Notes under the pieces: model-generated
Told to the model about the DNA's origin: nothing
The model's input: the letters and a program-made list of their open reading frames with translations, nothing else
The model's database searches: none
In this document: piece by piece, positions 9,261 to 57,781 of the stretch
Position numbering within the stretch: the first letter of the stretch is position 1
How the letters are laid out: the number at the start of each line of letters is the position of its first letter
Virus record (IMG/VR): IMGVR_UViG_2713896798_000008
DNA: 64,000 nucleotides
Reading direction: 5' to 3' (one strand)
Source: a virus
Taxonomy: Duplodnaviria > Heunggongvirae > Uroviricota > Caudoviricetes
Program-made: the position numbers and the translations under genes

Positions 9261-10752
9261 GCTGGCTTTCGGTGTCGCGCTGATGCTGTCGTTCAGTTCC
9301 GGCACTGTTTCCTCCTTTATCGTTGACGGGGTCAGTATCAAAGACCAGCCCCAGTCTGCTGTTTTCATCAATTTCAGCCTTGCGGCGACGTTTGACCTCA
9401 TCCGGATTGCGCCCTCCGGCCCGAACCCAGTCGGATTCTGTCGCTGCACCACCCCGGATCTGAATTCTCCAGGCTTCAGCTTCCTTAACCGGATCGATCC
9501 ACGGCATCACCGGACCGGAATACGTCGCGTTATATAGCGTTTTCATCTCCACATCTGCCGGAATTTTCAGCAGACCTGCCGCAACCACCATATTCAGCCA
9601 TGTCCGGTACACAGGGCGGGTTACCGCGCCAATAAAACAGTCCTGCAGGATCAGATACCCGTCGGTGGACTCGACCAGCTCCTGCCGCTGGGCACTGTAG
9701 GTACCGTTATAGTTACGCGCCGCACTGGAAAAACTCAGACGACTGCCTGCAGCTACTGCACGCAGCTGACCGTTACGAAAGGTTTCAAGATTGGGGTTAG
9801 GACGGTCAGATTTGACCATGCCGATATCCTCGCCCTTGCGCAAATCGTCATAAATAATACCCGGGGTGATATGGACTTCCCGCTCGGTCTCTTTGATCCC
9901 AGGATCTTCATAGTCCTGCCCGTCCCCTTTACGGATATACAGTCCCAGCGCCGCAGCAATACGCGCTGCCGTCAGTTCCGCATCCTCATACTCCTTAAGG
10001 GCACTGATCCGCATCAGCACCCCCGATAACATGGATGAGCCTCGCGTCTGATGCAGACGACGAGTGAACTTCAGGTGGATCATTTTTCCGGCAACGATTT
10101 CTTTCGTATCACTCTGCCGGCCGCTGACCGGATAATTTTTATAAACCAGATATTTTTTCGGTCTTCCCCACTCATCAAGAAAAACCCCCTGATTCAGCCC
10201 GGCGGATTCATCACTGCGCATGGGAACAAAATCCGGCTCCATCGCTTCAAGCCAGAATGGCACTCCCGCCGTCCGTTCCAGACCATTTCCCGCCCCACTG
10301 ACCATCTGCGCAAACACTTCACCATCCCGCAGCCAGGTCCGCAGCAGTAAACGCTCAAGCACGGGACGGGTATACTGCCCTGTCACATCCGGACTGACCG
10401 ACCATTCAGCCCACAACCGGCGGATATCCGCAGCCAGCTCTGCCGCCATTTCCCCGTTTTTTCGTAATGGCTGAGGCTCCACAATAATTCCCCTGGCACC
10501 AATCACCCGCTCTTCAAGCTTGTCAAACACACCAATCACCAGGTCATGATTGATATCCAGAAAACGGGCCTGCTCCCGCAGGGAAACCGCACCGTATTTA
10601 CTGAGCTGATCAGCAGAGCGATTTTCCCGCCGGGCTTTATGTGTCCGGGTCGTTTTCACCGCCTCATAGGCCATGATTAATGCCCTTGAACGCAGTCTGG
10701 CTGCTTTCCATCCGGGGGAAAACACGCCTATCACATCATCGATAATTGCCAT
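9250..10752 (-). CDS. Portal protein
   Basis: 500-aa ORF between terminase and protease/capsid, acidic C-terminal tail. Confidence 0.85.
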   Translation of the reverse strand: MAIIDDVIGVFSPGWKAARLRSRALIMAYEAVKTTRTHKARRENRSADQLSKYGAVSLREQARFLDINHDLVIGVFDKLEERVIGARGIIVEPQPLRKNGEMAAELAADIRRLWAEWSVSPDVTGQYTRPVLERLLLRTWLRDGEVFAQMVSGAGNGLERTAGVPFWLEAMEPDFVPMRSDESAGLNQGVFLDEWGRPKKYLVYKNYPVSGRQSDTKEIVAGKMIHLKFTRRLHQTRGSSMLSGVLMRISALKEYEDAELTAARIAAALGLYIRKGDGQDYEDPGIKETEREVHITPGIIYDDLRKGEDIGMVKSDRPNPNLETFRNGQLRAVAAGSRLSFSSAARNYNGTYSAQRQELVESTDGYLILQDCFIGAVTRPVYRTWLNMVVAAGLLKIPADVEMKTLYNATYSGPVMPWIDPVKEAEAWRIQIRGGAATESDWVRAGGRNPDEVKRRRKAEIDENSRLGLVFDTDPVNDKGGNSAGTERQHQRDTESQHEE

Positions 10753-15307: not shown

Positions 15308-15868
15308 TTATATACGTCCTTTAAGATAAGTCAGTCCTGGATGAAACCAGTAAGCCGGCACTTTTTTAAAGGGCGGGTTGTCAAACTCACGAAGAAGAGC
15401 CTCCCGCACAACTGCATCCTTGTCAGCACCACTGGCCAGCGCTTCAATCTCAGCAGCTATCTGCAGATATCCCATGCAACGACCAATGCACTTCATCAGC
15501 CCCTGCTTTTTATTGTTCTTCAGGTAATCAATGGCAAATTCAATGAGCTCCTCACTATGCTGGTGCGATGGCGGTGTTACTTTCCCATTTTCTGAGATGG
15601 TTATTTTCCCAGCATCACCGGATACAACAAAGGATGGCCGGTTACACTCCCATTCCAGCTCACTGAAATTATCATTATGAATACTGAAACACTCTGAGAG
15701 ATTTCTGCTCATCACTTTCCGACAATAATCGTCAAACGCAGCAAACTGCTCATCGCGGCGTTTTTTTTCATCTTCAGAAGGCATCAGCGTCGACAGTTTT
15801 TTATTCAGTTCAGCAATTTCATTTTCCAGACGACTGAAGCGCTGATTCATTTCTTCATGGTTCATCAC
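15308..15868 (-). CDS. Hypothetical 186-aa protein inserted between holin and endolysin
   Basis: Intact ORF abutting holin stop; N-terminal coiled coil (NQRFSRLENEIAELNKKLSTL); no family recognised. Confidence 0.5.
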   Translation of the reverse strand: MMNHEEMNQRFSRLENEIAELNKKLSTLMPSEDEKKRRDEQFAAFDDYCRKVMSRNLSECFSIHNDNFSELEWECNRPSFVVSGDAGKITISENGKVTPPSHQHSEELIEFAIDYLKNNKKQGLMKCIGRCMGYLQIAAEIEALASGADKDAVVREALLREFDNPPFKKVPAYWFHPGLTYLKGRI

Positions 15869-16075
15869 CTAATCTCCCCGGGCAGCCTTGCGACGGTCCT
15901 CTTTAATTTTGAAATACAGGTTAGTCAGATACGTCAGCAGGCCAAACAGCAGACTCCCCAGCACACCTATCGCCACCCACTGGGACGGAGAGACTTTGTC
16001 CAGCAGCTGCAGTAACCAGTATCCCGTCCCCACCGCTGACGTGGTGTATGACACACCTGTTGTGATTTTTTCCAT
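15869..16075 (-). CDS. S: Pinholin (phage 21 S-type class II holin)
   Basis: 68-aa [26 protein letters not shown]...[15 protein letters not shown], two TM segments, S21-like. Confidence 0.85.
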
Positions 16076-16521
16076 CCGATGTATGTCTCCGTCACCGCCG
16101 ACAGAAAATGAAAGTAAAGAAAAACAAAAAAACCGCCAGTGTCACCCACTGACGGCCAACTCCGGGAGCCGTGATTATGGCATTCAGGCTCTGCTAAAAA
16201 TGCCAGATAACATTCCGGCCCCCCCCTAGTTCAGGTTATAAATGACACAATATCTTGACAACATCCGTCACTGTCTGTCAGAAAATATACCGCCAGGCAT
16301 AAGTATCATGTGAAATCCAACTATCCTTTTGAGCCAGCACCTCTCCACCGAAAGTCAGTGCTGGCTGTTTTTTTCCTTAATAAAGCATCTGTAACTGAAA
16401 CAATCCGCATATTGATAATATATTGACAGGCATCATTGCTGTCTGTGAAAAATAAGTCTCTACAAACATATAAGGCCTTTTAGCCAGCGTCTTCTTTCAG
16501 GTCAGCCGCTGGCTTTTTTTA

Positions 16522-18423
16522 TTATGCTGCCGGTGCATTTATCTCCAGCACCAGACTTTCTATCTCAACGCCATACGCTGCATTTTTTGTAACATCCGTC
16601 AGCGTCAGCGCATTCAGCCCCAGTGTCAGACTGTCTTTTATGACCTGGAATGCCGGGCCAGCCACTCCATTCAGTTTCGGAGTAACCGTGGCACTGCCGG
16701 CGGTGAACACCAGCTCCAGCGTCTGCCAGTCGTTACCGTAATCGCCGAACTCCCCCAGCTTCGTGTTTCCGGCTTTCCTGTGATGCATCAGATTCACTCT
16801 GCCGTCAGTGGTCTGAGTGAAGTACGACATCAGGAACGGATTACCGGTACCCGTCATCGCCACACCATCAGGAACGGGAGCATCCGTATACAGATAAATC
16901 CCCAGCCCGAACTGATTGTTGGTCAGTGCGCCTGACAGGCGGAACTTACAGGTCAGTCTGCCGCCCTGTGTCAGCAGGGTAATTGCGTCATCCACCGGAT
17001 GCGTCAGGGACCAGGTTTTATTGCTCTGCTTGGTGATCTTAAATACACCATCTGACAACTGAATTCCGCCATCCTTAATGCTCCAGCCCTGCGCAGCAGC
17101 CTCTCCGGCTGCCGGCAGCAGGGAGATTGTGCGAACGGACGTATCTGCAGACGGACCCGATGGCGTGTTGCCGCCGGGCGAGGGTTTGATTTCCGGTGCC
17201 TTACCACTGATGAAGGCTGAGGTGCGCCCGGCTGCGTTCAGAATAGCGGTTGCCATACGATCCGGAATAATGCTCCTGCGCGCCCATGAACTGAAATGTG
17301 TCGGGCGGTTTGATGATACCTGGTTTCCATTCGTTCTCGATGCCGCACCGTAATATCCTGATGCCGGAATATCCGGATCTTCTGCCGGCGCGTTAGTGGC
17401 GGTATTGACGCCGTTACCGTCTGTCATGAAGGGCACAAAATAAACGCCCTCACTCTCCCTGTTTTTATACCCGCCGTACACGGTGTCGTACTGGGTAGCG
17501 TATGTATTTTTCCAGTAATACGTCGTGTCACCACAAATCCACGGCACATCTGCAGCACTGCCACCATGGCACTGCGCGTTAAACACGGAGAGGTCAGCAC
17601 GAAACTGTGTCAGCATGGCTGTAAACAGCGCAGGTTGCTGTGCGTGGGTGGCGGCGCTCATGTCAAACTCTCCCTGCATCCAGCACACCGCCAGCAACAC
17701 ATTTTTCGGGTTCTTCTGTAATGCAGCTTTGGTGCGCGCAATCAGGTCCTGATATAACGGTTTACCCACACCCCAGCGCGCCGAATCCTGGCTGGCCCCC
17801 GTGTCCGCACTGAATGTCCCCTCCGCGCCCTGGGTAAATGCCGAACCACCACGACAGCATGGTACCAGCAGGATCCCCGCGTTATTCGGGATATACGGGA
17901 GCAGTTTTTTGGCAATATGTAACCCCTGGCCGACACAGCCGTACTGCCCTTTGCTCAGGTCTGCCTTCGGATGATTCAGCGTACTCATATCCTGCACATC
18001 ATGCAGGCAGTGGTCGGCCGGAATAATATCGTTATATCTGCAGGCAGCCCCACCCGGCGTCACTGTACTGCGGCGCGCCAGCTGCTTAATGCGCGGGTCC
18101 GGACGGTCATATGTCTCCGGCAGCGGAAGGCCTTCACCATATGCCATGCCGTTTGACTGCCCCGCCAGAACCACAACAAAGTAATACTCCGGGTCTCTGG
18201 TGGCGCTGATTACTGTGCCTTCTCCATCCGACGGCTTCACCACAACAGGTGTGCTCACATCACCTTCTGCGACAATCGCCTGAATAAGTGCTGCGCCATC
18301 ATCCGTATACGAAGAAAACGGCCCGCCGTATGGCTGCCATCCTTCACGAATTTTTTGAGCAAGCGCATCCGCAAGGTCTGACGGCGACGCCGCCCTGACC
18401 ACGTCATAGTGTTTAAATGCCAT
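16522..18423 (-). CDS. Prophage sialate O-acetylesterase (NanS-p-like, SASA domain)
   Basis: 633-aa ORF with GQSNG esterase motif; position between tRNAs and lysis genes as in EHEC lambdoid prophages. Confidence 0.75.
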   Translation of the reverse strand: MAFKHYDVVRAASPSDLADALAQKIREGWQPYGGPFSSYTDDGAALIQAIVAEGDVSTPVVVKPSDGEGTVISATRDPEYYFVVVLAGQSNGMAYGEGLPLPETYDRPDPRIKQLARRSTVTPGGAACRYNDIIPADHCLHDVQDMSTLNHPKADLSKGQYGCVGQGLHIAKKLLPYIPNNAGILLVPCCRGGSAFTQGAEGTFSADTGASQDSARWGVGKPLYQDLIARTKAALQKNPKNVLLAVCWMQGEFDMSAATHAQQPALFTAMLTQFRADLSVFNAQCHGGSAADVPWICGDTTYYWKNTYATQYDTVYGGYKNRESEGVYFVPFMTDGNGVNTATNAPAEDPDIPASGYYGAASRTNGNQVSSNRPTHFSSWARRSIIPDRMATAILNAAGRTSAFISGKAPEIKPSPGGNTPSGPSADTSVRTISLLPAAGEAAAQGWSIKDGGIQLSDGVFKITKQSNKTWSLTHPVDDAITLLTQGGRLTCKFRLSGALTNNQFGLGIYLYTDAPVPDGVAMTGTGNPFLMSYFTQTTDGRVNLMHHRKAGNTKLGEFGDYGNDWQTLELVFTAGSATVTPKLNGVAGPAFQVIKDSLTLGLNALTLTDVTKNAAYGVEIESLVLEINAPAA

Positions 18424-18953
18424 GAATCCTCCCGGCCGGGATAATGTTGTGAGTCAGATAAGGGGCGGGCTGAAGTCCGGAAGTTACAGGACAATGACAG
18501 AAGGAAGACTACAGCCCGCAATACGAAAAAGGCCGCGCAGTTGCGCAGCCTTATAAACCCTGGTTAAAATCCACACGATAAAAATGACAATGCAAGTATC
18601 TCATGCTGTTGCCCGAACCTACTCGGGCTTTTTTTGCATGTAAAAAGGCTCCTGCGATGAGGAGCCTGGATATATGCCTAATCTCTGTATACAGCATGAT
18701 GCCGGGTGCCTCCCGGTGAATTCTGCAATGACCAGACAGAATCCGCAACTTGCCTATACAATACGCAACCAAACATCTGTCATTATGCCCCGCCGCCCAG
18801 GGGGATTCATCATGCAGGATTTTTTTAACAAACGCTCAGCATGTCAGGCAACAGTCAACTACCTGAATTGTGAGGCATTTAACATTTCACTGTCCGGTGT
18901 CTTTCCTGTAATAAAAAGCCCGCAAAAGAGAGTCAGGGCAGATAAGTGTGGTG

Positions 18954-19030
18954 TGGCGCGTTGTACTGGATTCGAACCAGTGACCGATTGCTTAGAAGGC
19001 AATTGCTCTGTCCGGCTGAGCTAACAACGC
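18954..19030 (-). tRNA. tRNA-Arg (anticodon UCU)
   Basis: Reverse complement folds as cloverleaf: GCGTTGT acceptor, anticodon loop CTTCTAA, T-loop GGTTCGAATCC, 3' GCCA. Confidence 0.85.
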
Positions 19031-19110
19031 AGAATACCGATAATGGACCGCCACCGGGGACTCCGAATCTCGCACAGGGTGACGTTCTTTCCTGATGAGC
19101 TAGTGGCGGT

Positions 19111-19186
19111 TGGTGGCCCTTGCTGGATTTGAACCAGCGACCTGGCGATTATGAGTCACTCGCTCTCACCACTGAGCTAAAGGGCC
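19111..19186 (-). tRNA. tRNA with CAU anticodon (Ile2/Met type, ileZ-like)
   Basis: Reverse complement GGCCCTTTAGCTCAGTGG...CTCATAA...GGTTCAAATCC...CCACCA; resembles E. coli ileX. Confidence 0.8.
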
Positions 19187-19226
19187 GGGCGCAGAATAAT
19201 AACGGTGCGTCACTGATTCTGCAATA

Positions 19227-20285
19227 TCATCCGTTCTGACTGATTAAATCCTGAACTTCCCTGACTGTCTGCTCAAAACGTCCGGTCTCCAGCTCAACAC
19301 CAATCGCCCTACGTCCCAGTGACAGCGCCGCTTTTACCGTTGAACCTGACCCCATGAAGAAATCTGCAACCAGGTCTCCCGGACGACTGCTCGCACTGAT
19401 TATCTGCCGCAGCATTTCTGCCGGTTTTTCGCACGGATGTTTTCCGGGATAGTACTGTACGGGTTTGTGCGTCCACACATCCGTATAAGGAACCGCAGCC
19501 GATACGGAAAAATAACGCCGCAGGGTTTTATACTCTTCCTGCAGGCTGACATATTGTCGGTTCAGTTCACTGTATGTACTGACCAGCTGGTGGTGTGGCC
19601 ATTCCAGTTCACCGCGCTGATGCTTCTCTTCTGCCACCCGGACAAACAGCGCCTGTAATTTCAGATAATCGCTTTCGTTCGGCAACTGCCACTGACTGGC
19701 ACTGAACCAGTGCGACACCATGTTTTTCTTTCCTGTGACATCTGCAATCTGTTTTGCCGTTATCCCCAGGGCAGCGCGCGCATCACGAAAGTAAGCAATC
19801 AGCGGGGCCATCACATGCTGTTTCAGTGCCCTGCCCTTCGCCTCACAGCCATCATCTTTCGGGCGATACGGCCCCTGATAATGTTCCGCGAACAGAATGC
19901 GCTCTGTGGCCGGAAAATACGCCCGCAGGCTTTCCTTGTTACACCCGTTCCAGCGTCCGGACGGCTTTGCCCAGATGATATGGTTCAGTACGTTAAACCG
20001 CTCACGCATCATGATTTCGGTGTCAGATGCCAGGCGATGGCCACAGAACAGGTAAAGACTTCCGGCTGGTTTCAGCACCCGCCAGAACTGCGCAAGGCAC
20101 TGGTCCAGCCACTTCAGGTAATCTTCATCACCCACCCACAGGTTATCCCAGTCCGCGGGTTTCACTTTGAAGTACGGCGGGTCCGTGACTATCAGGTCCA
20201 CAGAATTTTCGGGTAACGACCGCATAAATTCCAGGCAGTCGGCGTTGATTAACTCATAACTGGATATTTTTACAGTATTAAGCAT
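19227..20285 (-). CDS. DNA methyltransferase (beta-class amino-MTase, N6-adenine or N4-cytosine)
   Basis: 352-aa ORF with N-terminal catalytic motif DPPY (VTDPPYFKV) and C-terminal AdoMet motif FFMGSGST. Confidence 0.85.
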   Translation of the reverse strand: MLNTVKISSYELINADCLEFMRSLPENSVDLIVTDPPYFKVKPADWDNLWVGDEDYLKWLDQCLAQFWRVLKPAGSLYLFCGHRLASDTEIMMRERFNVLNHIIWAKPSGRWNGCNKESLRAYFPATERILFAEHYQGPYRPKDDGCEAKGRALKQHVMAPLIAYFRDARAALGITAKQIADVTGKKNMVSHWFSASQWQLPNESDYLKLQALFVRVAEEKHQRGELEWPHHQLVSTYSELNRQYVSLQEEYKTLRRYFSVSAAVPYTDVWTHKPVQYYPGKHPCEKPAEMLRQIISASSRPGDLVADFFMGSGSTVKAALSLGRRAIGVELETGRFEQTVREVQDLISQNG

Positions 20286-20435
20286 GGATCATTAAGCCTG
20301 TCTCTGATAGGCTCATTCTGCTTTTGCGCAAAGCAGTGGGCCTGAGGTTTGCTTGTGATCCAGACGCATGAGCAGATGGCTGGTGAGTGCCCCTAACACC
20401 CACCAGCCGCCCATTTACCACAAATAAAAAAGCCT

Positions 20436-20633
20436 TCAGGACTGAAGGCGTCTGTAACAACCGAACTGATAGTCTGCCAGACCCGCCATAACCAGCTGGG
20501 TCAGTATTAACTGGCAGCGTTCGCGTGAAAGGTAAGTATTCTGCGCAATCTCCCCGACTGTCGCCGGGTCGGTAACGCTTAATTCATTAAACACCACTCT
20601 GGCGGTTTCTGTCATATCCTGCTGTTTTAGCAT
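20436..20633 (-). CDS. Small hypothetical protein, first ORF of late transcript (possible winged-helix)
   Basis: 65-aa ORF from internal Met MLKQQDMTETARV... with AAGGG SD; located just after pR'-tR'. Confidence 0.4.
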   Translation of the reverse strand: MLKQQDMTETARVVFNELSVTDPATVGEIAQNTYLSRERCQLILTQLVMAGLADYQFGCYRRLQS

Positions 20634-20752
20634 GCCTTTTTTCCCTTTTCCGGTTAACGTGACATACCAATAACTCTTGTCGAAAAAGCCAGCAAGCTGA
20701 AAGACCCGTATTCGCAACCACCAGCGCGTTTACTGTACTGACGCGATTTTCG

Positions 20753-20778
20753 GGCATAAAAAAACCGCCTGGCGGCGG
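20753..20778 (-). terminator. tR'-like intrinsic terminator downstream of late promoter
   Basis: CCGCC-GCCA-GGCGG hairpin followed by T-run on transcribed strand. Confidence 0.5.
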
Positions 20779-20833
20779 TTTTTTCTTACTTTGCCATCGC
20801 GTACAAAATCGGCAAAATATCAGATTTACATGA

Positions 20834-20862
20834 AATATATGCTCTTCAGTTCTATTTTGCAA
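20834..20862 (-). promoter_or_regulatory. Putative late promoter pR' (TTGCAA-17-TATATT)
   Basis: Sigma70-like hexamers with 17-bp spacer overlapping the 3' end of the Q-like gene, followed by terminator. Confidence 0.45.
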
Positions 20863-21541
20863 GATATGGTTCTAAATTAAGCGACTGTTGCCGTGATCGT
20901 ACCCGCATTACTGAAATAAGAGCATCCCTGTCCAGCCCCTCTGCACTACCCCGCATAGCCAACCAGTGAGGCCTGTGTGTTGTTGTCCATGTAGATTTAG
21001 CAACTCCCATCAACACCGCCAACGCCTGATGTTCATAGGTCTCACGCCCGACCAGCTCGCTCTTCACATCCTGTACAGCCAGCCAGATCAACCTCTTCAG
21101 GCGTTCCTGCGTTTTCCCCGCTATTTTTCTGGTACCGGATTGAGCCTTAAACTCACTCCATACCCACTGTGTTATGGTGACCTGATCTTCCCAGCAAACA
21201 TTTCCACTGTAGCACCACAGTAACCACGCCTTCTGATGCTCTTCCAGTTCCAGAACGGCACGCCGCCACGATGATGTTGAAAACTCAACCGGACTGACCA
21301 GAGGAATTGACGTCCCCTTCGCCAGCGATTGCTTTCCCGGGATTGGTGGATTATCCCGCGTTATCATTTTTCCAGTCACTTCATCGCGGTACCGGATTTT
21401 TTTTCGCCTGTAACGCCCTGTATCGAACATGGCATTCTCTTGCCAGGCTTCAAGCTGACCTTTTGTTGCCCCACTCAAATCAGCGGTGGCGATAATGAGC
21501 TGCTCACGCACAAACTGTAAATACTGGTTATTCATGCGCAC
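20852..21541 (-). CDS. Putative late-gene antiterminator Q
   Basis: 229-aa ORF immediately upstream of pR'-tR' and downstream of rusA; call from synteny and recalled family resemblance. Confidence 0.55.
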   Translation of the reverse strand: MRMNNQYLQFVREQLIIATADLSGATKGQLEAWQENAMFDTGRYRRKKIRYRDEVTGKMITRDNPPIPGKQSLAKGTSIPLVSPVEFSTSSWRRAVLELEEHQKAWLLWCYSGNVCWEDQVTITQWVWSEFKAQSGTRKIAGKTQERLKRLIWLAVQDVKSELVGRETYEHQALAVLMGVAKSTWTTTHRPHWLAMRGSAEGLDRDALISVMRVRSRQQSLNLEPYLAK

Positions 21542-21891
21542 TCCAGTTCTGTGATTTTTATCCCCAACCGCCCACCAGGAACGAGTTGACCGCGCACAAT
21601 ATTGATTTCATCAAACTGCTCGTCGTCTATGAGTAGTCCGGCATGCGTCAGCGCATCCAGTGGTGCTTTCAGGATATTGTCCAGGTCACGACGGCGCTTA
21701 TCCGGTGGCTCTGCAATAATCTTTATCGCCAGCCTTCCGGACAGGTTTAATTTCAACCGCTGCTGGCGAACAATAAGCGCCACTGCCCGGCGATAACGCT
21801 CCCCGGCTTTTGATACAAAATATGTGCTGCCACGGCGTCGCCAGTAAGTGTTCACTGTCGGCGGATAAGGTAAAACCAAATCTATGAGCAT
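21532..21891 (-). CDS. rusA: Holliday junction resolvase RusA
   Basis: 119-aa ORF MLIDLVLPYPPTVNTYW...RRRDLDN..., RusA-like. Confidence 0.85.
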   Translation of the reverse strand: MLIDLVLPYPPTVNTYWRRRGSTYFVSKAGERYRRAVALIVRQQRLKLNLSGRLAIKIIAEPPDKRRRDLDNILKAPLDALTHAGLLIDDEQFDEINIVRGQLVPGGRLGIKITELECA

Positions 21892-21903
21892 CAGTCACCT
21901 CTT

Positions 21904-22953
21904 TTACCCGAGCACGCCAGTTGCAAAGGCGTGATCAAGAAAACGAAAAATTAACTCAACCTGGGAGCCGTACTTTTTCTCAAACTCCAGCGGGTCAGCA
22001 TGAAGTTCGTTGTGATGTTCCCGGCACAACGGTAGCGTGAAAATATCGTGGGCCTTTGTTCCCATTCCCCCCTGACCATGACCAATCAGGTGATGCGGAT
22101 CGTCAGCTGGCTTACCACAACACGCACACGGCTGTGTCTTTACCCAGCGCGTGTATTTCTCATTAACCCAACGGCGACGTTTAGGCCGCCTCATGAACGA
22201 TTCAGGAGACTCCGGATCAACAGCGATACTGACAACCGTTTTTTTCTGTGGTGGATTTTGTTGCTGGTGGACGTGAAGTGGCAGCGCAATATTTTTTGTG
22301 CGCTGCTTCAGTATGCTGATGGCTGTCTGTTCTCCCGGTACGATGTCACTCTCACGGTATACGGAGCGGATTTTTTCCGCTGGTAATCCCAGCGAACGAC
22401 GCGCTACTGCCTCAGGCAGTGCATCCACCACCTGATTGCAGGCCGCCCACCAGGATAATTCGGCCAGCGATAACTCCCTCTCCTGCGTACCGCTTATTGC
22501 GTGACGGATGACGTCAATCATCCAGGCAACCAGATTCTGCTGAGCAAGTTGATCGAGTGATTCTGATGTCTGGTCGCGCAGCTGGTTGTCACAGTGCCAG
22601 CACAACACCATCGCGCCGGTACCGTAACGGTGAATGACGGTTTCGCTGTGATGATAATCGCCATGTGGCCACTGGCAGGATTTCACTTGACGTAATAACC
22701 AGTCAGACAGTGCACCAGCGCCACCCGCAGCACAAATCACCCGTTCGTTGCTGAAAAATGGCAGTAATGTTTTATCCTCTGCCAGCGGCTGTCGAACGGC
22801 AGGAACGACTCCGGACGGCAGACCGCGCATGTTTTTCGGTTCCGGCTCCACCAATATTCTGCCGTTATGGAATGCTGACATTGATTCACGGCCCGGCTTT
22901 AGGAGCACCATCCCGAGTTCCGGTACCAGAACAGGTCGAAGTAATACCCGCAC
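21904..22953 (-). CDS. DUF968-family protein with C-terminal HNH-like Cys/His motif (YdfU-like)
   Basis: 349-aa ORF; C-terminus CACCGKPADDPHHLIGHG...CREHHNELH; paralog at 47055-48143. Confidence 0.7.
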   Translation of the reverse strand: MRVLLRPVLVPELGMVLLKPGRESMSAFHNGRILVEPEPKNMRGLPSGVVPAVRQPLAEDKTLLPFFSNERVICAAGGAGALSDWLLRQVKSCQWPHGDYHHSETVIHRYGTGAMVLCWHCDNQLRDQTSESLDQLAQQNLVAWMIDVIRHAISGTQERELSLAELSWWAACNQVVDALPEAVARRSLGLPAEKIRSVYRESDIVPGEQTAISILKQRTKNIALPLHVHQQQNPPQKKTVVSIAVDPESPESFMRRPKRRRWVNEKYTRWVKTQPCACCGKPADDPHHLIGHGQGGMGTKAHDIFTLPLCREHHNELHADPLEFEKKYGSQVELIFRFLDHAFATGVLG

Positions 22954-23348: not shown

Positions 23349-23834
23349 TTAGTTTTGCTGTTCTATTTTAAGCTTGATAGTTTCATACAAAACAATAGTT
23401 GCGCCTGTTTTACATAATTCCCGGCTGTCATATGCACGAGACCAATAACACAACCAGTTCTCGAGATCTTCTCGAGTATAGGTTTTGCAGGCCAGTCCCT
23501 CTGCCATTTCCACGATTTCATCGCCTGGTGCTGTTAACTCATAGCCATTCAACAACAAGAAGACGTAACCAGCCATCATAGCTGTTCGTTTGTTCGCATT
23601 CGCAAACGGATGATTCTGAATCAGACTTTCAATCAATACCGATGCCAGTACAAACATGTCATTGATCTGTTTATACCATCGAACCATGCTGGGACGGGCC
23701 TGAGAAGAACTTAAGTTATCTGGACTCAGAACACCAACGGGTTCATCTGGCGTCTGTAATTCAATTAGGGAACGATTGATTTCAACAAGATCATCAACCG
23801 TAAGGTAATGCACTCCTTCAACAATCTCAGCCAT
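23349..23834 (-). CDS. Doc/Fic-family toxin-like protein
   Basis: HPFANANKRTA matches the Doc-type Fic motif HxFx(D/N)(A/G)NKR; C-terminal extension; start probably MAEIVEGVHYL. Confidence 0.7.
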   Translation of the reverse strand: MAEIVEGVHYLTVDDLVEINRSLIELQTPDEPVGVLSPDNLSSSQARPSMVRWYKQINDMFVLASVLIESLIQNHPFANANKRTAMMAGYVFLLLNGYELTAPGDEIVEMAEGLACKTYTREDLENWLCYWSRAYDSRELCKTGATIVLYETIKLKIEQQN

Positions 23835-23852
23835 AGAGCACAATACCCATCA

Positions 23853-37800: not shown

Positions 37801-38376
37801 CTACGGCAGTGCTGGCCATTCAATATCCGGTGCAGTTGATGTATCAACACGGTTCAGCAACACCCGATACTTTTTCCAGGCTTCCAGCAACAAGGTTTCT
37901 TCCTCCGTTGCGATCTCCAGATCCACAGCATCCTGAAGCGGCGCTATATGCTCACTGGCTATCTGCATCAGGCTGTTTTTTGTTTCTTCCGCCTCCCGGA
38001 TCCGGAACAGTTTTTCTGCTTCCGTATCCTTCACCCAGGCTGTGCCGTTCCACTTCTGATATTCCCCTCCCGGCGATAACCAGGTAACATTTTCCGGTAA
38101 CGGACCGAGTTCAGAAATAAATAACGCGTCGCCGGAAGCCACGTCATAAACCGTTTTACCCCGATGATCTTCAACGAGATGCCACGATGCCTCATCACTG
38201 TTGAAAACAGCCACGAAGCCTGCCGGAATATCTGGCGGTGCAATATCGGTACTGTTTGCTGGCAGACCTGTATGAGGCGGAATATATGCGTCACCTTCAC
38301 CAATAAATTCATTAGTTCCGGCCAGCAGATTATAAATTTTTATGGTCCGTGGTTGTTCACTCATTCTGAATGCCAT
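37801..38376 (-). CDS. Tail fiber assembly protein (Tfa)
   Basis: 191-aa ORF, Tfa-like; adjacent to pin and tail fiber C-terminal fragment. Confidence 0.8.
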
Positions 38377-42025: not shown

Positions 42026-42254
42026 GCAAAAAAGCTCCCGAAGGAGCCTTCATTTTCACTTTTTTAAATCCAACGACAGACGGCTGGCATTTAAGTATTG
42101 TGAAATATTATCAAATGTAATCATCATTGATTTACAAAAGATACATTTTGCCCCGAAAGGATTCATGTCAGAAACATCAAAAGATGATGTTCTATACTGG
42201 GAACCATGACAACACGGGCATCTAAAGTGAATATGGTTTGTAATATTGTCTACC

Positions 42255-42467
42255 TCAAAGCGCCACTACATGAACAGCGGCAGGACCTTTAGGTCCGTTC
42301 TCAATACCAAATTCAACTTCCTGATTCTCAGTTAATGTTTTGAAATCGTTGCTCTGAATTGCTGAGAAATGGACAAACACATCTTTGCTGCCATCTTTCG
42401 GCGTGATGAAACCAAAACCTTTTTCAGGGTTAAACCATTTCACTAAACCAGTCATTTTGTTAGACAT
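42255..42467 (-). CDS. cspI: Cold shock protein CspI-like
   Basis: 70-aa CSD protein [21 protein letters not shown]. Confidence 0.85.
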
Positions 42468-42829
42468 AATTATTACCTTTTGAAGAAATTAGCCCTTGGG
42501 CAGAATGGTCCGAAAAAAAATATCAGAGAGAAAAACCAACAAGGAAATCTCAAGAGGTACAAATAATAAAATTATAACAATGACTGCTTCAGATAAATTT
42601 GTAACAAACCAGAACACCATTAACGCATGATTAACCACCCATAGCAAGGATTACTTTTGTAAAGAAAAACACAGCAATGAAAGAATGGCTTTATTTATTA
42701 ATAAAACGTGTCATTCTGATTAAGACCTTTTATCTTACCCTTAAGATTTCAGGAATTTTGGCTCATGGAAGAGTCCTTTTTATTTAAATTTTACATTCCG
42801 CGATGTAAATGTTCCGATTTAATATTACC

Positions 42830-44775: not shown

Positions 44776-45138
44776 TTGATTTTATTAGTAACAAGTATTT
44801 TTTATATTTTAATAATATATTTAAAGCAGATAATAAAAAACCCGCCTGAGCGGGTTTGAGATTGTGGTGCTTTTTGTGGGAGTCATCCACTTACGCACTT
44901 TGTTTTGCCATGCCAGCAGTTAGCTTCTGCTGTAAAACTATTCATGCAGCAAACCTGCACTTCACCACAATGGTTAGCATACTTTTCCTGATTAAGATTT
45001 TGCCAAATATGCTAGCCATTGTTTCATGTATTGGACCTCCTTACTTTTTATTAAAGAGATCCAATATTCACTACTCTGTCCGTATCTCTACTCAGGCATC
45101 AGCCTTCTTCGTTATCGTATACAGACGAGCGATGAATT

Positions 45139-45354
45139 TTAATCAGTAATGATGACATTTGCTGCTGCAGGACCTTTAGCACCACTCTCTATAGAGAAGG
45201 TAACCTTTTGACCTTCAAATAAGGTTCGATAATTATCATTCTGAATCGCAGAAAAATGCACAAACACATCTTTACTACCATCAACAGGAGAAATAAAGCC
45301 GAAACCTTTATCAGCGTTAAACCATTTTACTAAACCAGTCATTTTATTTGACAT
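45139..45354 (-). CDS. cspB: Cold shock protein CspB-like
   Basis: 71-aa CSD protein. Confidence 0.85.
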
Positions 45355-45654
45355 TCTACATTCCTTAACTTGAGCCTTTCGGCATAAATGGTTTGCATAA
45401 CAGAAACGACTTCGTACTTAATTGGAGAGACTCAAAGAAGGAATAAGTGAATAACACCTGAAATGAGAACTGCTTTAGTAAACTACTTCGTATATCGTCT
45501 GTTCTTCAAACCGACGCAATCATTAACGCATAGTTGAACATATGAAGCAATGTTTATTTTAGACATCCAGCCATCTTCAACCCCATCAAAAAACTATAGC
45601 TTTCTTCAGGAACGTGTGTATAGTGCGCCAAGTTATCAGTATTAAGGAATTTTT

Positions 45655-57341: not shown

Positions 57342-57781
57342 GAAAAATCCCCCAGAGAATTGTCTGGGGACATTTTAGAATGGTTCAAAGGGGACATTAC
57401 AGCTTGGTGTTAACAATAGCCTGCTTCTCCGTGCCTTTCGGCACGTAAGAGGCTAACCTACATGTGTCTAGCATGAAATTGGCCTCAGATTAATGTTAAG
57501 CGTCTTGCAGGACGCGTAATGTTAACTGGGGCTTTTCTCTATCTGCCGTTGGTGTCCATGCCCGAGGCAGATAGCCTCAAGCACCCGCAGTCATTCTACT
57601 TAACTAAGATTTCCCCGCAAACCGTTTTTGTCCAGCACAGTAAATATCCAACTAAACCAATGGAGTTCGCTGTATTTACCGCCAGTATTCAATGCACATG
57701 ACCGCCATGAACACCCCTAAAAAAAGGGCATTTATATATCCAAATATTAATATCAAAACATCAACTTTTTCCATATACCTT

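Follow-up and report, generated by a model that had tools for sequence, protein, structure and literature searches.

The window (the whole 64,000-nt stretch of DNA analysed here) carries on its minus strand, in this order, an antiterminator Q gene, a pR'-like promoter, a tR' hairpin, a 65-aa ORF, a methyltransferase gene, tRNA-Ile2(CAU), tRNA-Arg(UCU) and a NanS-p gene. These and the smaller elements among them are:

20852–21541, minus strand: antiterminator Q gene (PF06323, E = 1e-88; PHROG 304; PGAP annotation of the source genome)
20834–20862, minus strand: pR'-like late promoter, TTGCAA-17-TATATT, overlapping the end of Q (candidate from a consensus scan only)
20759–20784, minus strand: tR'-like intrinsic terminator (11-bp GC-rich stem and U-run), predicted to end a ~70-nt leader RNA
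20436–20633, minus strand: gene for a predicted winged-helix protein, 65 aa (PHROG 331, E = 2e-37)
20432–20449, minus strand: putative intrinsic terminator, sharing sequence with the small-ORF stop codon (hairpin scan)
20286–20420, minus strand: conserved, apparently structured leader, unannotated (conservation, RNAalifold consensus and covariance model)
19227–20285, minus strand: orphan beta-class N6-adenine DNA methyltransferase gene, M.EcoGI/M.EcoGII family (PF01555, E = 3e-43)
19111–19186, minus strand: tRNA-Ile2, CAU anticodon, ileZ type (ARAGORN; Rfam, 68 bits; PGAP tRNA-Ile; ileZ in Stx2 phages)
19044–19110, minus strand: argN pseudo-tRNA, a tRNA-Arg(UCG) lacking 12 nt of the anticodon arm (alignment to the intact copy of O55:H7 RM12579)
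18954–19030, minus strand: tRNA-Arg(UCU), argO type (ARAGORN; Rfam; comparison with Stx2 phages)
18874–18912, minus strand: junction occupied by stx2AB (1341 bp) in Stx2 phages (pairwise blastn breakpoints against Stx2a_1447 and BP-4795)
18636–18844, minus strand: STnc100/EcOnc27 (sRNA103) sRNA gene (Rfam RF02076, 175.6 bits, E = 6e-40)
18576–18635, plus strand: 60-nt sRNA on the AgvB/AsxR 'anti-sRNA' scaffold, convergent with STnc100 (RF02702, 56.2 bits)
18529–18552, minus strand: putative intrinsic terminator oriented with the late operon, shortly before nanS-p (hairpin scan; fold z = −3.7)
16522–18423, minus strand: NanS-p type sialate O-acetylesterase gene (DUF1737, SASA and DUF6645 domains)

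With a probability of about 85%, we read the 18424–20850 region as the promoter-proximal part of a late operon, in a lambdoid prophage of EHEC/EPEC type that is stx-negative and apparently intact. The original prediction had recognized here the architecture of Stx-converting and EHEC prophages, and the comparison agrees: the small ORF, methylase and tRNAs are 86–91% identical to those of Stx2 phages, and the supposed toxin 'slot' between the tRNAs and the esterase shares 81.5% identity with the spacer that separates stxB1 from nanS-p in Stx1 phages. Stx2a phages (Stx2a_1447/WGPS2, phiP27, 1720a-02) have the order Q, small ORF, methylase, ileZ–argN–argO, stx2AB, sRNAs, nanS-p, S–R–Rz. Gene order in the window is the same, and the 86–91% DNA identity extends from the small ORF to argO. 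However, the window is without stx2AB, its argN is decayed, its Q is of another type (PF06323), its NanS-p is just 57% identical to the Stx2a-phage homologue, and a 186-aa ORF lies between holin and lysozyme. This start of a late operon is ordinary and previously described, and each of the listed components falls in a described family; the sole item of the locus that is possibly new is the highly conserved RNA leader 5' of the methylase. The promoter, the terminators, Q dependence, methylase specificity, sRNA expression and esterase activity are all predicted from homology or consensus matches.

Late control appears to be of the lambdoid Q/pR'/tR' kind. As predicted, Q (227 aa, with its start placed by PGAP at an internal ATG) is followed by the promoter-like site and then by a strong hairpin with a U-run at 20784–20759, on consensus and fold evidence. 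The predicted pR' leader (20757–20828) folds at −27.2 kcal/mol (z = −4.8), and in Rfam it had only sub-threshold matches to known sRNAs (isrK, 22 bits; STnc370, 36 bits). In other phages, the pR' segment co-varies with Q type (about 84% identity beside Q genes).

The claim that the locus holds no toxin genes was upheld by a translated search, which found nothing in 18424–18953; over all 64 kb, the tblastn queries StxA1, StxB1 and a fragment of Stx2A gave a best E of 0.03 over 13 residues, at chance level. The arrangement that defines an Stx-converting phage, with stxA and stxB placed after the Q/tRNA region and before nanS-p, is therefore missing from the window. The proposed stx slot of 527 bp proved too wide: the actual insertion point is the ~39-bp junction at 18874–18912, and that of stx1AB is nearly the same. 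Stx phages carry stxAB between argO and the STnc100 promoter, whereas here the junction is uninterrupted. Toxin-free junctions occur in 491 of 5426 complete E. coli genomes, so that toxin-free copies of this late region are present in about 9% of them. The 126-bp junction is found at 95–100% identity in 471 of the 491 carriers, often in several prophages per genome.

The original prediction saw only terminator-like hairpins in 18424–18950. This does not hold: Rfam identifies two convergent sRNA genes of known Hfq RNAs, STnc100 and a member of the AgvB family, and the value of the result lies in correcting a common misreading of the space downstream of the toxin site as empty. The STnc100 match is full length (model positions 1–206) and far above the gathering score of 47, with a promoter-like site at 18847–18819 and a putative terminator at 18667–18646 (minus strand). 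An STnc100 gene is also found downstream of stxB in Stx1 and Stx2 phages, although the central ~60 nt of the present copy are unlike theirs. STnc100 is the same RNA as EcOnc27/sRNA103, located downstream of stx2B (PMC12711010), and is related to PasD; as described for both, the gene here stands directly upstream of a sialate esterase gene (10.64898/2026.05.13.724894). EDL933 transcribes its STnc100 copies (PMC5331693).

The second RNA, with a 5' seed of CGAUAAAAAUGACAAUGCAA, would be expressed from a promoter-like TTGCGC-18-TAAAAT at 18541–18570 (plus strand). Its score against the AgvB model barely meets the gathering score of 56 and is carried by the conserved 3' part; against AsxR (RF02703) it reaches 44 bits, below the gathering score of 63. 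The conserved 3' part and terminator are kept, but the 5' variable region is without CACAACA, the GcvB R1 target motif, and the RNA is therefore not AgvB proper. The same seed is present in Stx1 phage BP-4795, and the whole RNA matches the one encoded downstream of stx1 in Stx1 phages; we found no published target for the seed. The RNA has the features of the anti-sRNA scaffold family (EcOnc01–03; Tree 2014): a length of 51–60 nt, a ~42-nt conserved 3' part, a terminator, a variable 5' end and a convergent partner. Such convergent pairs, flanked by the moron site and a conserved phage ORF, were reported by Tree et al. 2014 for the pR' moron sites of the O157:H7 Sakai lambdoid prophages Sp3, 4, 5, 9, 10, 11, 15 and 17 (PMC4104026). 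The present pair resembles those of Sakai in its position between moron site and esterase ORF, its convergent orientation and its ~42-nt conserved 3' part, and differs in that no moron coding sequence precedes it and the seed is neither that of AgvB nor that of AsxR. It is conceivable, at somewhat less than even odds, that this anti-sRNA sponges a third core sRNA. The terminator at 18529–18552 overlaps the −35 region of the anti-sRNA promoter and is conserved in BP-4795 and 1720a-02. An ARN-type repeat (AAA AAU GAC AAU) lies in the 5' part of the anti-sRNA.

A small protein might be encoded here in place of the sRNAs, either by a 73-aa ORF (18551–18772) or by BP-4795 ORF42, since a 75-aa hypothetical protein is annotated at this position in BP-4795 and some EDL933 STnc100 copies bear ribosome footprints, their ribosomal coverage exceeding 1 (PMC5331693, Table 1). 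We find this hardly credible: the two ORFs align over their last 30 residues only, where they overlap the conserved antisense sRNA, central indels among relatives are not multiples of three, and the STnc100 covariance model matches over its full length at 175.6 bits. The 73-aa ORF overlapping STnc100 was also considered as a gene and rejected, its frame not being conserved in relatives. As to the history of the junction, both of its flanks are homologous to the flanks of stx2AB and of stx1AB, and stx may have been repeatedly lost beside these sRNA and esterase genes in chromosomes (preprint 10.64898/2026.05.13.724894), as would be expected if a former Stx-converting phage had lost stxAB by precise deletion. 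That history nevertheless seems rather unlikely to us: tblastn over the whole window detected no stx remnant, and the near-identity of the junction in 471 of 491 carriers is consistent with a toxin-free arrangement that is old and stable and that stx cassettes entered as morons. The alternative would be that this lineage has never had the toxin cassette.

Both tRNAs of the original prediction were confirmed, but a decayed third, argN (~19044–19110), had been missed. Instead of three intact tRNAs, the ileZ–argN–argO cluster thus consists of intact ileZ and argO with a decayed argN between them; the intact argN of O55:H7 RM12579 has the anticodon tcg, and neither ARAGORN nor Rfam makes a call for argN within the window. 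The decay of argN implies relaxed selection on at least part of the cargo, and the prophage may therefore not be fully functional. Rare codons in the prophage amount to 6.4 (AGA), 5.7 (AGG) and 6.8 (AUA) per 1000.

The NanS-p-like esterase had been called correctly from its sequence, although the gene lies just outside the span 18424–20850. Strong sequence matches were to PDB 3pt5 (NanS/YjhS, E = 2e-119) and 6yp6 (NanS-p C-terminal domain, E = 9e-30), and the protein shares with EHEC NanS-p and chromosomal NanS/YjhS a three-domain build and, at residues 88–91, the GQSN block of the SASA/SGNH fold. Compared with these esterases the allele is divergent, and its esterase activity is predicted. 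Rfam gave no match to a PasA/PasC-like sRNA in the nanS-p-to-holin spacer.

The methyltransferase (352 aa) has the predicted beta-class motif order, with the catalytic DPPY (residues 35–38) ahead of the AdoMet motif FMGSG (~310–314), and a REBASE-type comparison gave a clear answer, the M.EcoGI/M.EcoGII family. It is identical to M.EcoGII at 315 of 349 residues (~90%) over the full length and without large indels, a value that is approximate because the M.EcoGII query was machine-read, with reading errors, from the SUPREM supplement (PMC11551740). Identity is 90% to the methylase of phage 1720a-02, which has been named as a close M.EcoGII relative (PMC5778455), and 70% to SUPREM, an engineered ancestor. 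M.EcoGII is itself 93–94% identical to the Stx2a-phage methylase in the same late-operon position; a search for papers connecting M.EcoGII with late expression in Stx phages returned nothing specific. The enzyme is thus a close relative of a widely used tool enzyme and not an unknown orphan. It shares with M.EcoGII and M.EcoGI of E. coli O104:H4 C227-11 (Murray et al. 2018, PMC5778455) a prophage location, orphan status and the order DPPY before FxGxG; it differs from M.EcoGII in length (349 aa in M.EcoGII) and by about 34–37 substitutions, which could change specificity or activity. M.EcoGII methylates adenine in any sequence context and is harmful when constitutive, and both M.EcoGI and M.EcoGII are reported to be unexpressed in the lysogen (PMC5778455). 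As had been claimed, no restriction gene is adjacent: PGAP annotates none in the surrounding 46 kb, and PADLOC detected none among the neighbouring ORFs. The neighbours are the winged-helix ORF and the tRNAs, where a type II restriction–modification (R–M) system would have its cognate endonuclease. Between pR' and the methylase, a consensus scan found two terminator-like hairpins and no promoter-like site, a layout that agrees with silence of the gene in the lysogen.

The small ORF upstream is real, but its true extent is 65 aa (ATG at 20633, ending at 20436) and not that of the 93-aa TTG ORF. Its product is predicted to be a winged-helix protein: the AlphaFold2 model (pLDDT 90) has a helix–helix–helix–beta-hairpin topology, Foldseek aligns the model to MarR, IclR and SelB winged helices (TM 0.7–0.8), and sub-threshold Pfam matches are to TrmB, MarR and DprA_WH. 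The recognition helix RERCQLILTQLV is invariant in the alignment. A hairpin equivalent to the terminator at the stop codon was found in a Salmonella relative. By analogy only, the gene recalls R–M controller (C) proteins, in that a small protein with a DNA-binding fold is encoded directly upstream of a timing-sensitive methylase. C proteins, however, have an Xre-type HTH, work through C-boxes that precede their own gene, and are accompanied by an endonuclease, whereas here there is a winged helix, no endonuclease and a conserved, apparently structured 150-nt spacer intervening.

Across Enterobacteriaceae, this ~150-nt spacer separating the winged-helix ORF from the methylase is better conserved than either gene (mean pairwise identity of 83.7%, compared with 70.4% in the small ORF and 74.3% in the methylase). 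The three elements occur in that order in 22 of 23 species-representative loci, and the spacer is 147–154 nt long in 20 of the 21 that were measured, the exception being a locus (L034) whose small ORF has a premature stop. The leader has an RNAalifold consensus fold. In all, 98.6% of cells are paired, and three pairs show compensatory changes; this covariation is thin, with double changes at only three pairs among 50 distinct sequences that had themselves been aligned to the model. An alternative fold is nearly as good (92% paired). A covariance model matched the leader at 139 bits, while Rfam 15 held no credible match to 20286–20435 and, at E ≤ 10 over 191 nt of the leader region, returned sub-threshold matches only (9.5–18.3 bits, against gathering scores of 35–100). 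We found no annotation of the methylase leader anywhere searched. No sigma-70 promoter was found on the sense strand inside the module in the window or in the Salmonella or Mangrovibacter relatives.

In sum of its features the spacer looks like a structured sense-strand RNA. We tentatively propose, with slightly less than even confidence, that the winged-helix ORF, spacer and methylase form one three-part module, in which the spacer would be an undescribed cis-acting RNA, possibly with two alternative folds, that, acting by itself or together with the winged-helix protein, controls the lytic dose of a non-specific DNA/RNA methylase toxic to the host. If there are two folds, one possibly frees the methylase start codon, which has no Shine–Dalgarno sequence, and the other pairs the bases just upstream.

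Two other readings bear on this module. The spacer could be conserved as DNA and not as RNA, being an operator for the winged-helix protein, a Chi site or a recombination 'boundary' of the module. A Chi octamer does lie within the leader (20400–20407), inside the invariant 5' arm of the main hairpin, GCTGGTGG; the P4 segment, a near-palindrome of 16 bp (GCTTTAGCGCTAAAGC), might serve as an operator, and a symmetric change in one genome preserves the palindrome (AACGTT); and the protein encoded next door has an invariant recognition helix. We nonetheless regard conservation as DNA as on the unlikely side, because changes in the 3' arm of the main hairpin convert U-A to U-G and G-C to G-U, which is tolerated only in a sense-strand RNA, and such changes at three pairs occur in 19, 3 and 6 distinct sequences. 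In addition, variable positions fall in predicted loops, pair 69:93 occurs as CG, AU, UA and UG, and Chi is common throughout the window, so that its presence in the leader is not special. The RNA and DNA-level readings are mutually compatible.

For the methylase, the original prediction of 'an anti-restriction or epigenetic moron' stands in its first half, with the second unlikely. A sequence-specific enzyme that regulates host genes epigenetically in the lysogen would have parallels in orphan prophage methylases with host effects elsewhere, such as in Staphylococcus (PMC12435837), and some 10% of positions do differ from M.EcoGII. Such a role is very unlikely, however, given the two intrinsic terminators and the lack of a promoter-like site between pR' and the gene, and the reported silence of M.EcoGI and M.EcoGII in lysogens (PMC5778455). 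On the basis of this silence and of the ~90% identity to M.EcoGII, late-phase anti-restriction is the likely role.

The elements can be combined into a sequence of events, conditional on the homologies above. In the lysogen, pR' would fire and RNA polymerase would halt at tR', and only the two sRNA genes would be expressed, from their own promoters, with STnc100/EcOnc27 and the 60-nt, Hfq-dependent anti-sRNA acting on host RNAs. After induction, Q-modified polymerase would pass tR', the terminators that follow the small ORF and STnc100, and also the 18552–18529 hairpin, with expression of the winged-helix protein, the methyltransferase, the tRNAs, NanS-p and the lysis genes in this order. The methyltransferase would then modify adenines of replicating phage DNA non-specifically, leaving the progeny resistant to many restriction systems, while the tRNAs would read the rare codons AUA and AGA and NanS-p would de-O-acetylate sialic acid released from mucus. 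The 150-nt leader, probably with the winged-helix protein, would most likely tune translation or stability of the toxic methylase mRNA. Control by the leader and its winged-helix neighbour would explain how the phage can safely use an enzyme that is harmful when constitutive, and the leader would then be one more phage cis-regulatory RNA.

The leader was also considered as coding sequence and the candidates were rejected: a 33-aa ORF (20313–20414) is interrupted by TAG in most relatives, and a 60-aa ORF (20278–20460) and all other frames are open in a minority of 22 sequences. An in-frame TGA stands two codons ahead of the methylase ATG.

The original prediction read this region as the late operon of a Stx-converting-type prophage without its toxin genes, and domain, Rfam, PGAP and promoter-consensus matches located every element it listed: Q, pR'-tR', small ORF, methylase, tRNAs and NanS-p esterase. 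Positions 16000–22000 align end to end with the chromosome of E. coli SCPM-O-B-7615 (raw milk), bar a 1-base length difference in a non-coding spacer. PGAP's annotation of that chromosomal site shows a lambdoid prophage that seems to be complete, with genes from integrase through to tail fibre. All the predicted features are on the minus strand, with gene order read downwards from 21541:

21541 downwards, minus strand: Q (PF06323, E = 1e-88)
20862–20834, minus strand: promoter-like site TTGCAA-17-TATATT (pR'), by consensus match
20784–20759, minus strand: strong hairpin with U-run (tR'), 50 nt beyond the promoter-like site
20633 (start ATG), minus strand: small ORF, conserved version of 65 aa
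20449–20432, minus strand: second terminator, on the stop codon of the small ORF
Between small ORF and methylase, minus strand: spacer of 150 nt
19227–20285, minus strand: methyltransferase, 352 aa (PF01555), DPPY near the N-terminus and FMGSG near the C-terminus
Next, minus strand: tRNA(CAU), tRNA-Ile according to PGAP, and tRNA-Arg(UCU)
Between tRNA-Arg(UCU) and the NanS-p gene, minus strand: the 'slot', 530 bp, where stx genes would be expected
Next, minus strand: NanS-p-like protein, 633 aa (DUF1737, SASA and DUF6645 domains)
After NanS-p, minus strand: holin, 186-aa ORF, lysozyme, Rz
15308–15868, minus strand: the 186-aa ORF, inserted between holin and lysozyme (PHROG 1085, unknown function)

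The transcript from the pR'-like site is predicted to begin with a leader of ~70 nt folding into two hairpins (−27.2 kcal/mol, z = −4.8). Against solved structures, the 633-aa protein matched 3pt5, the NanS esterase, at E = 2e-119 and 6yp6, the C-terminal domain of NanS-p, at E = 9e-30. The 186-aa ORF had no Pfam, NCBIfam or PADLOC match.

Stx-phage-type architecture, absence of toxin and an orphan methylase were each interpreted correctly. Phage-derived StxA1 and StxB1 and a fragment of Stx2A, used as tblastn queries against all 64 kb, returned nothing above chance, in the slot or elsewhere. In pairwise comparison with Stx2a phage 1447, homology extends from the tRNAs down to window position 18913, breaks off, and is picked up again at 18873, a point 46 nt beyond the stx2B stop; 39 bp therefore stands in place of the 1341-bp toxin cassette. 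Homology to Stx1 phage begins at 18887, 40 nt past stxB1, and the remainder of the slot is an sRNA region with 81.5% identity to its Stx1-phage counterpart. The toxin-free configuration is common: a 126-bp probe for the junction was found in 491 of 5426 complete E. coli genomes, O157:H7 strains among them, at up to 4 copies per genome. Because every listed item belongs to a described family and the configuration is widespread, the finding is already known. Modest leads beyond the known layout are a conserved methylase leader and an anti-sRNA seed without a published target.

That seed lies in the slot, which had been described as containing only hairpins. This was wrong, as Rfam places two sRNA genes there:

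18636–18844, minus strand: STnc100 (175.6 bits, E = 6e-40, full model length)
18576–18635, plus strand: 60-nt RNA abutting STnc100, on the AgvB scaffold (56.2 bits; gathering score 56)

Both genes have a promoter-like site and a terminator of their own; the plus-strand promoter of the 60-nt RNA, TTGCGC-18-TAAAAT, was read straight from the sequence. The arrangement is the one that Tree et al. described in eight Sakai prophages, with convergent genes for Hfq-bound sRNAs lying between a conserved phage ORF and the site, downstream of pR', where morons insert; the short RNAs share a conserved 3' portion of ~42 nt but differ in their 5' seed of 14–18 nt (PMC4104026). The long partner corresponds to EcOnc27/sRNA103 (PMC12711010), and EDL933 has 11 transcribed copies of STnc100 (PMC5331693). 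The 60-nt RNA lacks the CACAACA motif that defines AgvB and is thus not AgvB proper, and against the AsxR model it scored 44 bits, below the threshold of 63. Its seed, CGAUAAAAAUGACAAUGCAA, is identical to that of the BP-4795 copy, which lies downstream of stxB1 in that phage. A 73-aa ORF overlapping the sRNA genes was rejected as a slot protein, its frame not being conserved in relatives. The −35 element of the promoter for the convergent anti-sRNA (18541–18546, plus strand) lies within the terminator hairpin before nanS-p (18529–18552, minus strand), so late read-through and anti-sRNA transcription may interfere with each other.

The methyltransferase has the beta-class motif order originally proposed, DPPY ahead of FMGSG, and PGAP annotates no restriction endonuclease within 46 kb; in the neighbours tested with PADLOC, the methylase was the sole gene recognised. 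Its best phage match, 90% identical at the protein level, is from phage 1720a-02, whose methylase is very similar to M.EcoGII according to Murray et al. (PMC5778455). The SUPREM paper prints an M.EcoGII sequence in its supplement; with that as reference, 315 of 349 residues are identical, an approximate value because the text was machine-read with a few obvious errors. SUPREM is only 70% identical to the window methylase. The same reference is 93–94% identical to a 'DNA methylase' that many Stx2a phages encode between ileZ and the small ORF, so M.EcoGII-type enzymes occupy this late-operon position. M.EcoGII methylates adenine whatever the surrounding sequence, with double-stranded DNA, single-stranded DNA and RNA all serving as substrates; constitutive expression harms the cell, and its authors suggested that it is turned on at prophage induction (PMC5778455). 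From this family identity and the published properties, we infer that the window allele is a non-specific adenine methylase that would be produced solely under Q antitermination and would shield progeny DNA from restriction. The original prediction also allowed for an epigenetic regulator acting in the lysogen, which is unlikely given that M.EcoGII, a close relative, is silent there (PMC5778455); the methylome of a lysogen, which had been proposed as a check, would probably show nothing.

Stx2 phages and O55:H7 RM12579 carry three tRNA genes at this site, ileZ, argN(UCG) and argO(UCU). In the window, ileZ and argO are intact, and between them argN (19044–19110, minus strand) is a pseudogene with 12 nt of the anticodon arm deleted and further substitutions, called by neither ARAGORN nor Rfam. 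In the genes of the prophage itself, AGA, AGG and AUA make up 6.4, 5.7 and 6.8 of every 1000 codons, which is more than the average for E. coli K-12. Phage tRNAs are usually explained as support for late-gene translation, and this rare-codon use fits that explanation. The otherwise near-identical prophage of O55:H7 RM12579 shows the reverse pattern of decay: its three tRNAs are all intact, whereas the small ORF, the leader and the bulk of the methylase have been lost by deletion (locus positions 9821–10262), leaving a 114-bp methylase remnant.

The small ORF and methylase travel together, and Klebsiella and Salmonella prophages whose Q types and lysis cassettes are different also carry the pair. 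A set of 23 loci was taken from species-representative genomes belonging to Escherichia, Salmonella, Kluyvera, Citrobacter, Pseudocitrobacter, Buttiauxella, Klebsiella, Scandinavium, Enterobacter, Mixta and Mangrovibacter. In 22 of these the small ORF is followed by the methylase, and the spacer measures 147–154 nt in 20 of 21 measured loci, the exception having a small ORF with a premature stop. Across ~11 genera (relatives L006–L036 and L118–L237), the spacer (20286–20420, minus strand) is more conserved than either flanking gene, with a mean pairwise nucleotide identity of 83.7% against 74.3% for the methylase and 70.4% for the small ORF. It matched no Rfam family, and a coding function was rejected as no frame is conserved in relatives. 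A covariance model built from 22 leader sequences matched every locus having the small ORF, including two with the methylase deleted, and had no other occurrence in ~1 Mb searched. Both genes were present in 105 of 120 IMG/VR contigs found through the conserved leader block, and the methylase was missing in one. Eight had the methylase but no small ORF detected by tblastn; of two inspected, one has a divergent small ORF keeping the RCQLILTQLV motif and the other truly lacks it.

The spacer is predicted to form a structured sense-strand RNA. RNAalifold gave a three-way junction (P1–P3) and, beyond it, two hairpins, the second of which stops 10 nt short of the methylase ATG; that start codon has no Shine-Dalgarno sequence ahead of it. 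In 50 distinct but closely related sequences, in an alignment fitted to the model, 98.6% of cells were paired, with compensatory double changes at three pairs; one pair takes CG, AU, UA and UG, and the variable columns lie in predicted loops. The 5' arm of the main hairpin is invariant and the 3' arm varies from U-A to U-G and from G-C to G-U, a pattern that points to selection on sense-strand RNA. A second fold, the minimum-free-energy structure common to the E. coli and Salmonella sequences (92% compatible), pairs the bases directly upstream of the methylase ATG with a segment 70 nt away; its long-range helix joins GGUCA to UGAUC. The two folds could be alternative states, or the predictions may simply not fix the real structure. 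DNA-level constraints may also contribute to conservation, since a Chi octamer lies in the invariant arm and P4 is nearly palindromic.

The small protein is confidently predicted to be a minimal winged helix (pLDDT 90), resembling the DNA-binding domains of MarR and IclR and the RNA-binding winged helices of SelB, and its recognition helix is invariant across genera. The best guess, although somewhat less likely than not, is that leader and small protein jointly tune expression of the dangerous methylase.

The Chi octamer, GCTGGTGG, occurs at 16 sites in the window where chance would give 2.25, and 12 of the 16 are on the minus strand; one copy (20400–20407, minus strand) is the invariant leader-hairpin arm and another (20718–20725, minus strand) lies just after tR'. 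The 446-bp non-coding spacer between nanS-p and holin (16076–16521, minus strand) has terminator-like hairpins at 16157–16131 and 16219–16202, a promoter-like site at 16445–16417 and no Rfam match, and differs from NZ_CP144926.1 by one base. PasA/PasC sRNAs have been placed between esterase and holin (2026 preprint), and this spacer may hold such a gene. In the nin region PGAP further annotates a toxin gene of the death-on-curing (Doc) family (23349–23843, minus strand), which has a small ORF upstream of it, and, beyond the integrase, an IS5-like insertion together with what remains of a second prophage, similar to Qin. Other Rfam matches were:

37835–38033, minus strand: IS009
42228–42613 and 45123–45515, minus strand: cspA thermoregulator leaders
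57415–57586, minus strand: sok antitoxin RNA
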